Source: an uncultured Verrucomicrobiae bacterium (lineage in GTDB: Bacteria; Verrucomicrobiota; Verrucomicrobiia; Chthoniobacterales; UBA10450). From it: 64,000 nucleotides of DNA. How positions within the stretch are numbered: the stretch's first letter is position 1; each line of letters starts with the position of its first letter. This document shows positions 59,173-63,903 of the stretch, one piece after another. The notes beneath the pieces are model-generated. The model saw nothing but the letters and a program-made list of their open reading frames with translations, did no database searches and was not told the origin of the DNA. A program made the position numbers and the translations under genes. Location of the stretch: assembly GCA_963772365.1 (NCBI GenBank), contig CAVYXA010000001.1, positions 32,001-96,000 of the forward strand. Direction: 5' to 3'.

Positions 59173-60411
59173 ATGAGCACAAACCTGATCTCCAGCGGCA
59201 CGACGGCGCGCGAGAAAATTAATTTACGCACGCCGGACGTGATGGCGGCCGTGCAGGAACAGGTCGAATCCCATTATCGCAGCGACATCGTCGATAAAAT
59301 CCGGCGGGCCGGCGGAATTATTTCGGTAGGAAATACCACTGTGCGGCTGGCGAAACAATTCGGCTTTTGCTACGGCGTCGAGCGCGCCATCGATCTCGCC
59401 TATGCCGCGCGCAAGGTGTTCAAGGATCGCCGGCTCTTCATTGTCGGCGAAATCATTCACAATCCGGAAGTCAACCAGCAGATCGCCGCGCTCGGTATCA
59501 AGAATCTCACTGGAAAAAACAAAGAGGCTGATATCTCCGATCTCGGCCCAGATGATGTCGTCATCGTGCCGGCGTTCGGGACGGAGTTGGCGATCCAGCG
59601 ACAAATCAAAGATCGCGGCTGCCAGATTGTCGATACTACCTGCGGCGACGTGATGAGCGTCTGGAAACGGGTTCGCAAGTATGCCAGCGAATCGGCTACT
59701 TCCATCATTCACGGCAAAGCCGAACACGAAGAGACCAAAGCCACCAGCTCGCGCGCTCTCGGCGACGGCAATGGACATTATCTCGTCGTGCTCACTCTGG
59801 CCGAGACCGATTACGTTTGCGATTACATCCGGCACGGCGGGGATAAGCATGCGTTTCTGGAGAAATTCAAAGGCGCCTACTCGGCGGGATTCGATCCCGA
59901 TATCCACCTCCAAACTGTCGGCGTAGCCAATCAAACCACCATGTTGCGCGGCGAGACCGAGGAAGTGCAGCGAAGAGTCCGGAAAGCAGTTGTCGATCGT
60001 GACGGCCCCGAGCTAGCCCAAAAGAATTTCCGATTCTTCGACACCATCTGCGGCGCAACACAGGAACGTCAGGATGCGTTGCGCGAGCTTCTTAACGTGT
60101 CGATGGATTTGCTCCTGGTCGTCGGCGGTTACAACAGCTCCAACACATCGCATCTGGCCGAGATGGGCGAAGAGAAATTGCCCACCTATTTTGTACTCAA
60201 TGCCTCACGACTCGTTTCCGCGAACGAGATCAAGCATTACGATCTACACGAGAAACGCGAAGTCGTTTCCCATTTCTGGCTCCCGCCCGGCCCAGCCGTC
60301 ATTGGCATCACCGCCGGCGCATCCTGCCCGAACAATCTGATTGAAGAAACATTGATCCGCCTCTTCGAGCTACGCGGTATTTCGCGCGACCAACTTGATC
60401 TCGCCGCGTAA
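59173..60411 (+). CDS. ispH: 4-hydroxy-3-methylbut-2-enyl diphosphate reductase
   Basis: GFCYGVERA, IIHNP, DTTC, HEET, NQTT, DTICGATQERQ, GGYNSSNT, TAGASCP. Confidence 0.96.
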   Translation: MSTNLISSGTTAREKINLRTPDVMAAVQEQVESHYRSDIVDKIRRAGGIISVGNTTVRLAKQFGFCYGVERAIDLAYAARKVFKDRRLFIVGEIIHNPEVNQQIAALGIKNLTGKNKEADISDLGPDDVVIVPAFGTELAIQRQIKDRGCQIVDTTCGDVMSVWKRVRKYASESATSIIHGKAEHEETKATSSRALGDGNGHYLVVLTLAETDYVCDYIRHGGDKHAFLEKFKGAYSAGFDPDIHLQTVGVANQTTMLRGETEEVQRRVRKAVVDRDGPELAQKNFRFFDTICGATQERQDALRELLNVSMDLLLVVGGYNSSNTSHLAEMGEEKLPTYFVLNASRLVSANEIKHYDLHEKREVVSHFWLPPGPAVIGITAGASCPNNLIEETLIRLFELRGISRDQLDLAA

Positions 60412-60493: not shown

Positions 60494-60697
60494 ATGAACT
60501 TGCGCTTGGTAGTGGAGCATGATCCGGAGAGCAAGCGCTGGGCGGCTTTCTTTCCGGAACTGCCTGGGTGCGCTTCGGCAGGTGATACCGAGCAAGAAGC
60601 GATCGACAACGCAAAGGAGGCGCTCGAACTCTGGTTTGAACCCACTCCGGCTGCGGTTCCTCCCGGCGCTAAGGTCGTGGAAGTTGCTCTTACGTGA
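60494..60697 (+). CDS. hicB: HicB family antitoxin (short form)
   Basis: FPELPGCASAGDTEQEAIDNAKEAL. Confidence 0.9.
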   Translation: MNLRLVVEHDPESKRWAAFFPELPGCASAGDTEQEAIDNAKEALELWFEPTPAAVPPGAKVVEVALT

Positions 60698-60912
60698 GCG
60701 AGCGGTTTCCAGTGCGCAGCGCTCGTGACGTGATTCGGGTGTTGCGCAAGCATGGTTTCGCAATGCTCCGCCAGCGCGGTAGCCATCAGAAATGGCGACA
60801 TCCCAACGGGCGGCAAGTAATCGTCGCCGTGCACGGCAACAAACCGATTCCGATCGGTACATTAAAAAGTATCATCGAAGGAAGCGGATTAACCGTGGAG
60901 CACTTTCGATAG
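60694..60912 (+). CDS. hicA: HicA family toxin
   Basis: LRKHGF..RQRGSH..VAVHG..GTLKSI. Confidence 0.92.
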   Translation: MSERFPVRSARDVIRVLRKHGFAMLRQRGSHQKWRHPNGRQVIVAVHGNKPIPIGTLKSIIEGSGLTVEHFR

Positions 60913-60916
60913 AGGC

Positions 60917-61025
60917 GGCATGACCGCTGGCGCATCCTGTCCCGAATAACCTGATTGAAGAAACATTGATCCGCCTCTTCGAATTACGCGGCATTTCGCG
61001 CGAACAACTCGGACTCGCGGCGTAG
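60917..61025 (+). repeat. Diverged direct copy of the ispH 3' end (60304-60411)
   Basis: 14 substitutions and 1 inserted base over 108 nt by manual alignment; ends in TAG. Confidence 0.92.
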
Positions 61026-61074: not shown

Positions 61075-61466
61075 GCGCCTCAGCATTTCTGAAATCGCGA
61101 TGACTGCGATAACGCTGCGGACGACGAGTATAACGAGAACGTATTCCCGCCTCAGCATTTCTGAAATCGCGATGACTGCGATTTTGCCCTTGGACGGCGC
61201 TGGCGAGCACTCTCTGCCGCCTCAGCATTTCTGAAATCGCGATGACTGCGATTGCTGCCGCGCCTGCTACCTGGCCGATACTACTTATCCGCCTCAGCAT
61301 TTCTGAAATCGCGATGACTGCGATGATACTTCCAAGATCGATAACGATCAATGGCATGTCCGCCTCAGCATTTCTGAAATCGCGATGACTGCGATCCGGC
61401 AGCCAAACAGTGGGCTACAACGATTTCGCGCCGCCTCAGCATTTCTGAAATCGCGATGACTGCGAT
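61075..61466 (-). CRISPR. CRISPR array, 6 x 36-nt repeats, 5 spacers of 34-36 nt
   Basis: Repeat on minus strand ATCGCAGTCATCGCGATTTCAGAAATGCTGAGGCGG at 61075, 61147, 61217, 61289, 61360, 61431; only the cas-distal copy has a mismatch. Confidence 0.97.
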
Positions 61467-61644
61467 CCACCCTGTCAATAACCGGCAACTTCCCGTGGTG
61501 TCGTTAGGCGAATATCGAGCGCACTCTCGAAATGCGATGGCCTATCGCGGTCAAAAGTCATTTGCGAGTCGGAGGACGCAACGAATTTCAGAGGTAATCG
61601 CAGCCGCGCGAGCGCTGCCGCAGTAGCGCCACAGCAATCTCGCG

Positions 61645-61738
61645 CTCGCTAGTCTCGTTTATCGCGATTTCAAAGAGCTGCTTCTCCAATGGCGGAAGAG
61701 AAGTGGTCGGTGGCAGAGGCCTTTCGGCTTTGTTTGCC
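61645..61738 (-). ncRNA. Predicted tracrRNA
   Basis: Anti-repeat CAGCUCUUUGAAAUCGCGAU (61661-61680), hairpin CUUCUC/GAGAAG with loop CCGCC matching repeat end GGCGG, 5' GGCA/UGCC stem with GCCGAAAGGC hairpin. Confidence 0.8.
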
Positions 61739-61744
61739 AAGCTA

Positions 61745-61773
61745 ATTAAAGAGCGCGTTAGAACGATTGGCAA
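61745..61773 (-). promoter_or_regulatory. Sigma70-like promoter for predicted tracrRNA
   Basis: TTGCCA-N17-TTTAAT; predicted start G at 61738 is the first base of the 5' stem. Confidence 0.6.
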
Positions 61774-61804: not shown

Positions 61805-62095
61805 CTAGATCACAGTGACGCGCGTTCTGACTGTGTAAGGTAAACCCATCGCTTCGATGATCAGGCTTGCGTCATTTGAGCTTGGTCCAAGCGAGACGAA
61901 CAAAACCTGGTCTTCATCATGATTCAAGATTGGGTGAAGAGATGTTTTCAGATTTGCCATCCTCAGATCGTCGAGCGGACATTCGAAAACAGAGTACTGC
62001 AAGCGCACGCCAAAGCCTTCGAGGACACGCGCGACCTGTCGCAAACGTTTCGGGTTGCAAATATCGTAACTGACGAGATAGCGGAGCCGGCTCAT
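61805..62095 (-). CDS. cas2: CRISPR-associated endonuclease Cas2
   Basis: YLVSYDICNPKRL, RLQYSVFEC; ATGA overlap with cas1. Confidence 0.95.
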   Translation of the reverse strand: MSRLRYLVSYDICNPKRLRQVARVLEGFGVRLQYSVFECPLDDLRMANLKTSLHPILNHDEDQVLFVSLGPSSNDASLIIEAMGLPYTVRTRVTVI

Positions 62096-63903
62096 CGCGT
62101 TGTGAAACCGTGGTAAGCGATAGCCTCGCCGCGCACGAAGCGCCAAAGTTGTCGCGCCTGCACTTCGAGCATTCGTCGATAAGCCATCTTGTAGACGAAC
62201 TGCGGATGACTTACTTCCGCGTCGAGCCGGCGGAACCATGCCTCCCAAAATGCTTTTCGACCTCGCTCGTTTAGAAAAGTGCCGCTGGCGCTGCGAATGA
62301 AATCGTCTGCGCCGACTTCGCCGCGATTCACGAGTGAGATGGCGACGCTGTCTGCGATGAGGGGACGAAATTCTTCCATCAAATCCAGCGCGAGCGCGGG
62401 CCGGCCGTAGCGCGGCTGATGCATGAAGCCGAGAAACGGATCGAGTCCCACTGCGTCGCAGACGCCGGTGAGTTCTTTGGCCAGCATGGAGTAGCCTAAC
62501 GAGAGCAACGCGTTCGCGGGATCGCGAGGCGGACGGCGATTGCGTCCACGCCAGTCGAATTTCCACGATTCTTTCAACATCGATTCGAACTGTTCGAAGT
62601 AGAGCGCGGCGGCCGTGCCTTCGATGCCGAGCAATTCCGTCATGTCATGGGCCGACTCCGTGGCGTCGCGAAAACCGGCAAGCAATTGCAAGACGCGATC
62701 AGGCACATCGCCATTGCGCATGAGCATGGTGCGTTGATTGTGAATTTTCGCGCGCACCACTTCACGCGCGAGTTGCAGACGCACGCCGGGGAGTTCGAAG
62801 AGACGATATTGTCCGCGGCGCGCGTCCACGCCACTCACCGGCAAGGCGCGCAACGTCCCGAGAAAACGCCCCGCTGGGCTAAAGTAAGCGACGTCGATTC
62901 CGAGCTCGAGGCACGTCTCGATCGCCTGCGCGGTTAATTGAATCGCGCCATAACAGTAAATCGCGCGTAGTTGATGCCCAGGCAGCTTGCGCGCTTCCGC
63001 GCCCTTCACCGAGACGACAAACTGATCGCCGCGCTGTCCAATTTGCGCTCCCGGAGTTTGCACCACCAACACTTCGCCGTCGTCGTGCTCCGGGCGCGGC
63101 GGCTGTAGAGTATGGGCCTTCTTTCCAGATTCGGCTGCGAATTCGAGCGCTTCGAAAATCTGCTCGCGCACATGATCCTCCGCTGGCGCGCTGAACCCGA
63201 AGCGAAGTTGATCATCCGGCTTCGCGGCTTTGCCCGCTCGCGCCCACCACCAGGACTCGTTAGGCAAACAGATCGGATACGCCGAACAATACAGACATCG
63301 CGGATCGTTTTTCAGCGGAGGCGGGCACTTGCCACTCGCCGCGACTGCGCGCGTTTGCTCGATGGTAGTTAGAACTTTCGCAAACAACTCTTCACTCAAT
63401 TCCAGTGGCACACGCCGCTTCTCCGCTGCGTAATAAATTGCGGCGCGCGTGGCGTTGATACCGATCTCGCGCAGCAAGAGCGCATGCGCGGCTACCTGAA
63501 TGGCATCGGGCTCTTTCGCAACACGCTCGCCGTTGTTATCGCGTCGCGCCGACCCTTTTTTGTAATCGACAATCTCCGCGCCGTCCGGACCGCCCTCGAT
63601 GAGATCGACGACGCTAATCAATCCCAGCGACGCGCTTTCCAACCGCAAACTTCGCAGCGTCGCGCCTTCAGGAAGATTTTCGCCGAGCGCTTTCAGTTTC
63701 TCTTCATCGACACGCGAGGCGCGATCGACATTGCGATGCGCATGCGACCCTTCGATCGTATCGGCGTTCTCCTGAAAAATATTCTCGACCCACTGATAAT
63801 AAAAAAGCCGCGGGCAATAGATGAAATTATGCAACCGCCGCACCGGCATCGGCGGCTGCGATTCAAGCCCGCCTTGCGTTTGCACCGGCGCATCGATTGA
63901 CAT
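62092..63903 (-). CDS. cas1: Cas4-Cas1 fusion
   Basis: Cas4: YCPR, DLIE..DYKKG, RCLYCSAYPIC; Cas1: LGIEG, RRPPRDPANALLS, GFMH, LALDLMEEFRP; start could be the later MPVRRL. Confidence 0.95.
   Translation of the reverse strand: MSIDAPVQTQGGLESQPPMPVRRLHNFIYCPRLFYYQWVENIFQENADTIEGSHAHRNVDRASRVDEEKLKALGENLPEGATLRSLRLESASLGLISVVDLIEGGPDGAEIVDYKKGSARRDNNGERVAKEPDAIQVAAHALLLREIGINATRAAIYYAAEKRRVPLELSEELFAKVLTTIEQTRAVAASGKCPPPLKNDPRCLYCSAYPICLPNESWWWARAGKAAKPDDQLRFGFSAPAEDHVREQIFEALEFAAESGKKAHTLQPPRPEHDDGEVLVVQTPGAQIGQRGDQFVVSVKGAEARKLPGHQLRAIYCYGAIQLTAQAIETCLELGIDVAYFSPAGRFLGTLRALPVSGVDARRGQYRLFELPGVRLQLAREVVRAKIHNQRTMLMRNGDVPDRVLQLLAGFRDATESAHDMTELLGIEGTAAALYFEQFESMLKESWKFDWRGRNRRPPRDPANALLSLGYSMLAKELTGVCDAVGLDPFLGFMHQPRYGRPALALDLMEEFRPLIADSVAISLVNRGEVGADDFIRSASGTFLNERGRKAFWEAWFRRLDAEVSHPQFVYKMAYRRMLEVQARQLWRFVRGEAIAYHGFTTR

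Follow-up and report, generated by a model that had tools for sequence, protein, structure and literature searches.

A predicted two-stem tracrRNA at a type V-B (Cas12b) CRISPR locus, with probable single-guide fusions in related genomes

The window analyzed here is a stretch of 64,000 nt (contig positions C1:32001-96000 of G000:C1) that holds part of a CRISPR locus, the effector gene of which lies outside it. The following genes and array were annotated:

62092..63903, minus strand: cas4g-cas1g fusion, 603 aa (profile NF049935, 595 bits, above the cut-off)
61805..62095, minus strand: cas2 (profile TIGR01573, E 5e-12)
61075..61466, minus strand: CRISPR array with 6 repeats of 36 nt and 5 spacers of 34-36 nt
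C1:101968-97300, minus strand, outside the window: cas12b in two pieces (NF033949, above the cut-off for both halves)

Along the minus strand the order is cas12b, an ORF6N-domain gene, a vapBC pair (encoded on the other strand), cas4g-cas1g, cas2, the element studied here, the leader and the array. The element is thus placed between the Cas4-Cas1 fusion and cas2, both present, and the array, with which it shares a strand at a distance of about 190 nt, and cas12b lies 3.6 kb upstream of it, beyond the window. This gene order matches the V-B arrangement given in PMC10691335 and PMC11423069. The repeat ends in GAGGCGG at its 3' end in five of the six copies and in GAGGCGC in the last one. Two toxin-antitoxin pairs were also observed around the locus. 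The 3' end of ispH is duplicated (window 60327-60410 and 60941-61024, 88% identity over 84 nt), and the duplicates flank a hicAB pair (60494-60912) in a pattern as at an integration site, with the array starting just past it. The vapBC pair is flanked in the same pattern by a duplicate of the cas4g-cas1g 5' end, 85-88% identical (L001:5906-6800, i.e., C1:95906-96800), and the ORF6N-domain gene lies between this insertion and cas12b.

The two cas12b pieces match positions 1-705 and 708-1252 of NF033949, and both are 58-66% identical over their full length to intact relatives of 1531-1589 aa; judged by these alignments, they are the halves of one gene split by a single frameshift near G000:C1:99355 (L001:9350-9400), just after the RuvC-I region. 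Considering that no break was seen in six long housekeeping genes of the assembly, indel errors do not seem to be rife and the break may be real, in which case interference may be off in this genome. The size of type V-B2 effectors (Cas12b2, about 700-800 aa; PMC10691335) does not fit, since the closest intact relatives have 1531-1589 aa. A divergent RuvC-I motif, with the aspartate kept and the flanks changed, was noticed in the sub-clade of L112 (P0001), P0002 and L001, and is not a sign of decay because intact relatives have it in common.

The element itself and the adjacent leader comprise the following parts:

61768..61773, minus strand: predicted -35 box TTGCCA, its TTG conserved among relatives
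61745..61750, minus strand: predicted -10 box TTTAAT, non-canonical, called from sequence, 17 nt from the -35 box
61712..61738, minus strand: stem 1 (GGC/GCC), 99.5% of alignment cells paired, two of three pairs with two-sided changes
61728-61719, minus strand: inner hairpin GCC-GAAA-GGC of stem 1, optional and GNRA-capped
61704..61711, minus strand: conserved 8-nt linker, from the alignment
61681..61703, minus strand: stem 2 of 7 bp (one G-U) with a 9-nt loop and no inner stem 3, 99.3% paired, six of seven pairs with two-sided changes
61691..61695, minus strand: short anti-repeat CCGCC, predicted to form a pseudoknot with the 3'-terminal 5 nt of the repeat, with compensatory changes in relatives
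61661..61680, minus strand: long anti-repeat, 4 bp + 14 bp, from the co-fold and comparative pairing
61646..61654, minus strand: remnant extension GACTAGCGA, which in the co-fold follows a 6-nt bulge and pairs with the repeat 5' end
61608..61649, minus strand: inverted repeat in the leader, with arms at 61649-61642 and 61615-61608; shared by 61 of 74 loci

Related loci were collected through a Cas12b alignment (160) and a class-wide search (30), and 99 of 191 loci had an array. After leaving out 23 duplicates, unrelated arrays, L034 (repeats ending in AAGGCGG) and L085 (inverted), 75 remained, including the window. The element precedes the array in 74 of these 75 non-duplicate loci: a strict hairpin rule matched 71, of which the match in L037 is spurious (cas2 and the element are deleted there), and the four loci failing the rule carry the element with one stem mismatch. 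The excluded loci L034 and L085 carry it too. In a stem alignment (A2) of 63 of the 74 loci, some with starts corrected by eye, pairing in stems 1 and 2 together reaches 99.4%, and 8 of their 10 pairs show two-sided changes; none of 500 shuffles reached the covariation score and slid controls were likewise far off. The stem-2 loop has 9 nt in all 63 rows, and a stem 3 inside it, as in the AacCas12b/ChCas12b type, is absent from every one of them.

A model (R1) gave one strong match in the source genome. It was strong in 14 of 23 cas12b-positive genomes and in none of 20 cas12b-negative ones (one weak match), some of these genomes being the same records as training loci, and it matched 4 of the 121 nearest genomes, all four cas12b-positive. 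Among the nine cas12b-positives missed, three have another repeat type (ending in GGACAC), two of them with a clear three-stem tracrRNA, two carry diverged two-stem versions, and four have a contig that ends at or near the gene. Three-stem versions were found only in loci with GGACAC-ending repeats (L210 and L211). The predicted two-stem tracrRNA is typical of a widespread, mostly Verrucomicrobiota clade with GGCGG-ending repeats. Two irregular forms were seen along the way: in L107 (14374-14588) the stem-2/anti-repeat unit occurs in three tandem copies 95 nt apart, and in L081, L092, L100, L167 and L176 the long anti-repeat is broken by a 20-30-nt insertion, sometimes a hairpin.

The sequence-only reading of this DNA had proposed a minus-strand promoter, TTGCCA-N17-TTTAAT, which is present at 61773-61768 and 61750-61745, with a conserved -35 and a weak -10 box. 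In 57 of 69 loci a TTG begins 34-37 nt ahead of stem 1, against a mean of 7.5 and a maximum of 23 in control windows; this conserved distance places the predicted tracrRNA 5' end near 61738. A consensus promoter scan did not call the element's promoter since the -10 box has no A at position 2; TA-containing hexamers at -10 spacing were seen in several relatives (judged by eye). The proposed stem with a GAAA tetraloop does exist at 61738-61712, but only part of it belongs to the core: by comparison among relatives, the conserved part of stem 1 is 3 bp and the GAAA hairpin is a variable, optional insert. In most relatives stem 1 has 10-11 nt (41/69), and seven of the eight long-insert loci folded have GNRA-capped inserts. 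From stem 1 to the end of the pairing, the window element measures 93 nt and the clade median is 83.

Co-folding with one repeat, as that reading had suggested, gave helices of 4 bp and 14 bp (the latter with 12 Watson-Crick pairs plus U-A and U-G) separated by a small internal loop, then a 6-nt bulge and a further helix with the repeat 5' end, so that the proposed 12 perfect base pairs plus 4 reappear as 4 bp and 14 bp. The pairing of the anti-repeat reached -32.5 kcal/mol versus -12.0 +/- 3.1 for shuffles, and none of 2000 was as good. By duplex energy alone the anti-repeat ranks only fourth among minus-strand 40-nt windows in the 20-kb neighborhood, where the DNA is G+C-rich and three coding windows match it in pairing energy with the repeat. 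Support for the element as a tracrRNA is chiefly comparative. Cognate anti-repeat/repeat pairs are 9.25 kcal/mol better than the cross-pairing expectation (0/10000 permutations, kinship not controlled). Folded by itself, 61740-61661 shows no advantage over shuffles (z 0.01), whereas the first 60 nt fold better than theirs (z -2.4). An Rfam scan of the element found no matching family, its sole match being a chance lncRNA (E 0.23).

The extension proposed after the anti-repeat pairs in the co-fold, and comparison with relatives indicates that 61646-61654 is the remnant of a continuous anti-repeat seen in most of them; when the segments on either side of the leader inverted repeat are compared, the preceding one forms the better pairing with the repeat 5' end in 50 of 61 loci. 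However, the extension overlaps the leader inverted repeat, which probably does not belong to the tracrRNA, so the tracrRNA 3' end is uncertain. The inverted repeat is probably a DNA element of the Cas4g-Cas1g leader because it also occurs in the loci with a different repeat and a three-stem tracrRNA (L210 and L211). Accordingly, the hairpin 61649-61608 was counted with the leader and not with the tracrRNA core. Co-folding of longer transcripts favored another extension, of 9 bp at 61605-61597, which was rejected as not conserved. A second, CGCTCGC-like motif, counted 64 times among 74 leaders, lies 53-55 nt ahead of the first repeat and is likely a site for Cas1-Cas2 or a host factor.

The hairpin loop CCGCC, claimed to be complementary to the last five repeat bases GGCGG, lies at 61695-61691. 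The count of complementary loci, 74 of 74, holds partly by construction, as the anchor search used the repeat end; the more telling observation comes from position 4 of the pairing, which is C-G in 72 loci and T-A in two, namely L057 and L081, where a repeat end GACGG goes with a loop CCGTC. A search blind to the repeat returned 130 CCGCC loops and three CCGTC loops, the latter going with GACGG ends. In a quick Cas1 tree (73 rows, L190 left out), L057 and L081 fall in different well-supported clades, implying two changes, and three further CCGTC/GACGG pairs occur in cis in L072, L096 and L236. In related loci the complementarity of loop and repeat end, whose loss would have spoken against the sequence-only reading, is thus kept, and the two change in step. 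Only one of the five pairs varies, the other four being without a covariation signal. These two independent compensatory changes in arrays support a pseudoknot between the loop and the repeat end. In the co-fold this loop pairing is replaced by a nested helix that joins the repeat 3' end to the linker preceding stem 2. That helix is the choice of ViennaRNA, which cannot form pseudoknots, and the linker is well conserved; but in L057 and L081 the loop and the repeat end change together and the relevant linker bases do not, and L063 and L106 have an unrelated linker with the loop kept. We therefore regard a nested linker helix in place of the pseudoknot as very improbable. Next to the pseudoknot, the unpaired repeat base -6 is T rather than A in L063, L106, L108 and L111, where the opposing loop base is never A (4/4); the comparison figure is 5/70 in the other loci, where base -6 is A. 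It looks as if pairing at this base were avoided, in one clade of the Cas1 tree and possibly through a single event.

Because the element sits between cas2 and the array with two separate repeat-complementary segments, it is very probably the tracrRNA of a type V-B (Cas12b) CRISPR system, which would load Cas12b via two duplexes with the pre-crRNA. Two duplexes, including a short one of 5 bp, are the published V-B pattern (PMC11246509, PMC6546382 and PMC12204704), and the 5-bp duplex between the stem-2 loop and the repeat 3' end is present here as in V-B tracrRNAs. The sequence-only reading had named this feature of Cas12b guides; cas12b is indeed in the locus, and both duplexes covary across relatives. 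The RNA would be transcribed from its own promoter with a start near 61738, and its long anti-repeat would pair with the central part of the repeat within the pre-crRNA, forming a duplex that, by analogy with other V-B systems, RNase III is likely to trim. Beside the spacer, the stem-2 loop CCGCC would form a pseudoknot with the five bases that end the repeat, and the resulting two-duplex guide would be loaded by Cas12b. We infer this transcription, processing and loading, and likewise a 5'-ATY PAM.

Three other accounts bear on this identity or on its consequences. Chance complementarity in G+C-rich intergenic DNA would explain why three nearby coding windows pair as well with the repeat by energy and why no Rfam family matches, but it is refuted by the comparative data, i.e., positional conservation and covariation in 74 loci and confinement of the element to cas12b-positive genomes, and deserves practically no credence. 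It is also conceivable that the tracrRNA, the leader and the array are transcribed as one long RNA that is cut later, rather than yielding a discrete RNA of 80-95 nt, given that the element and the array share a strand about 190 nt apart and no intrinsic terminator was called between them. However, a strong hairpin can form from the leader inverted repeat directly after the anti-repeat (z -2.0), and V-B loci of the same order yield discrete tracrRNAs according to PMC6342934; we consider such a long transcript unlikely, and it would alter the biogenesis, not the identity, of the RNA.

The remaining account accepts the identity and holds that the RNA is a silent relic of a decaying system, with no effector to load. 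The frameshift in cas12b, in an assembly whose housekeeping genes are unbroken, the short array and the toxin-antitoxin insertions on both sides are in its favor. On the other hand, there is only one break in 4.6 kb of cas12b, possibly a single assembly error, both halves are still 58-66% identical to intact relatives, and cas1, cas2, the promoter and all pairings are intact. A silent relic is thus a possibility to be taken seriously, if not the one that we favor.

Cas12b tracrRNAs as such are known, and the difference here is the two-stem scaffold with a 9-nt loop. The closest solved structure to the source-genome effector is ChCas12b from Candidatus Hydrogenedentes (PDB 9KLN; E 8e-18, a distant protein match). 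As described in PMC12204704, its guide likewise runs from a 5' stem 1 through a linker and stem 2 to a long anti-repeat, its stem-2 loop holds a 5-bp short anti-repeat, and the effector is a large Cas12b (~1500 aa); the tracrRNA has 75 nt and the scaffold 91 nt. Whereas the window element has a 9-nt loop without stem 3 and a repeat ending in GGCGG, the stem-2 loop of the ChCas12b guide measures 30 nt and encloses a third stem, and the repeat ends in CAC. AacCas12b, BhCas12b, NiCas12b and the 15 orthologs of PMC11423069 share with our locus the order cas12b, cas1, cas2, tracrRNA, array and a bulge pairing with the repeat 3' end. In contrast, 13 of the 15 ortholog repeats end in CAC, none of the 15 scaffolds listed there ends in GGCGG, most guides have three stem-loops, and TTN PAMs are used, whereas ATY is predicted for the clade of the window element.

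The compact type may have been met before in EbCas12b, whose 'Eb' presumably stands for Elusimicrobia bacterium. This effector (PMC6342934) may share the clade, as a locus from an Elusimicrobia genome (L059) has the same two-stem element. Small-RNA reads for its putative tracrRNA and only minimal in vitro activity are reported in that paper. If it belongs to the same family, the compact tracrRNA type has already been seen by RNA-seq. For a Cas12b clade that is large (406 related proteins at E<=1e-30) and has mostly gone untested, these comparisons yield a two-stem scaffold backed by covariation.

Model R1 also finds second tracrRNA copies upstream of cas12b in relatives. A full scaffold with a repeat-like end in cis, complementary to its own loop, was detected in 11 of 106 distinct cas12b-upstream regions (ten by script and one by R1; L036 and L043 are close kin). 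In all 11 fused copies a TTG lies at -34 to -36 and the scaffold measures 61-129 nt; the 7-10 nt that directly follow the repeat end are matched by a site located 130-530 nt before cas12b. The mean seed match is 8.5 against 5.8 at random positions (maximum 6.7 in 200 sets), and the sites are preceded by ATC in ten cases and by ATT in one (null mean 0.2, maximum 1). Scored by promoter-like hexamer pairs, the target sites have a mean of 8.9 versus 6.9 (0/300) under a null not matched for base composition. Eight of the 11 precede an ORF of 84-111 aa lying before cas12b (L036:7532+, L043:7524+, L047:7433+, L057:974+, L135:7362+, L180:7598+, L188:1062+ and L167:576+); in seven of these the fused copy and the ORF stand directly before cas12b, and the guide matches the ORF promoter region beside ATC/ATT. 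The other three are divergent, have no small ORF, and carry a guide matching a site upstream of cas12b itself (L072:2421-, L088:7794- and L096:7819-). L180 carries such a module, and L179, more than 99% identical on both flanks, is without it. In the source genome, where R1 has its one strong match only, neither a fused copy or repeat end upstream of cas12b nor a member of the small-ORF family was found.

A Pfam search of the small ORFs gave no match in 8/8. An Atlas model has a TM of 0.78 to a ParE cluster, and the best Foldseek matches are HigB2/RelE/ParE, none at E<=0.001, so that a RelE/ParE-like fold is predicted from models with Foldseek support below significance. It is probable, on the pattern of these sequences, that the tracrRNA was duplicated and fused to a repeat end to give stand-alone sgRNA genes (61-67 nt), which would direct Cas12b by a 7-10-nt seed and an ATC PAM to repress the cas12b promoter or that of a putative orphan RelE/ParE-like toxin gene situated immediately before cas12b. 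The tracr-L of type II-A (bioRxiv 10.1101/2020.05.21.102756) is similar in its short, PAM-adjacent guide match to a cas promoter and its predicted repression without cutting, as are CreR/CreTA-type repressors of types I and V-A, with a short guide to a cas or toxin promoter (10.1101/2023.03.03.530964 and 10.1101/2024.01.05.574328). Unlike either, each fused copy appears to be a gene of its own for Cas12b, uniting a complete tracr with a repeat under a dedicated promoter, and neither a long isoform of the main tracrRNA nor a stand-alone repeat. No natural V-B single guide was found in the literature covered, which did not extend to subscription journals and patents. If true, repression by such fused guides would bring to type V-B both autoregulation guided by RNA and a toxin addiction module under CRISPR repression; the guides would also be the shortest known from nature for Cas12b, and their PAM would differ from TTN. 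The regulatory interest lies in the relatives and not in the window, whose cas12b is broken. The direct sgRNA design that the sequence-only reading had suggested gains support from the natural fusions of 61-67 nt, and since these indicate the joining point and a predicted ATY PAM, intact relatives could be directly tested as editors.

Searches for protospacers gave no credible one when 1443 spacers were compared with all DNA gathered for the analysis, and no meaningful phage match for the spacers of the window array. Five spacers, namely two from the window array, two of the three from L090 and one from L180, had no match in exact scans of viral contigs. Independently of the fused copies, a spacer in the L090 array is matched at 34/35 nt by four viral contigs, with ATC on the 5' side (one shared flank). 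Fourteen viral contigs matched the fused-guide pattern, of which 12 were rejected as chance, lacking stem 2 or a promoter, and a second pattern gave 12 viral matches with the same two real ones, L231 and L236. These two carry fused Cas12b-type scaffolds of 65-66 nt with no cas gene within 2.5 kb, and the guide of L236 matches its own -35 region beside ATC; they are possibly decoy or regulatory guides.
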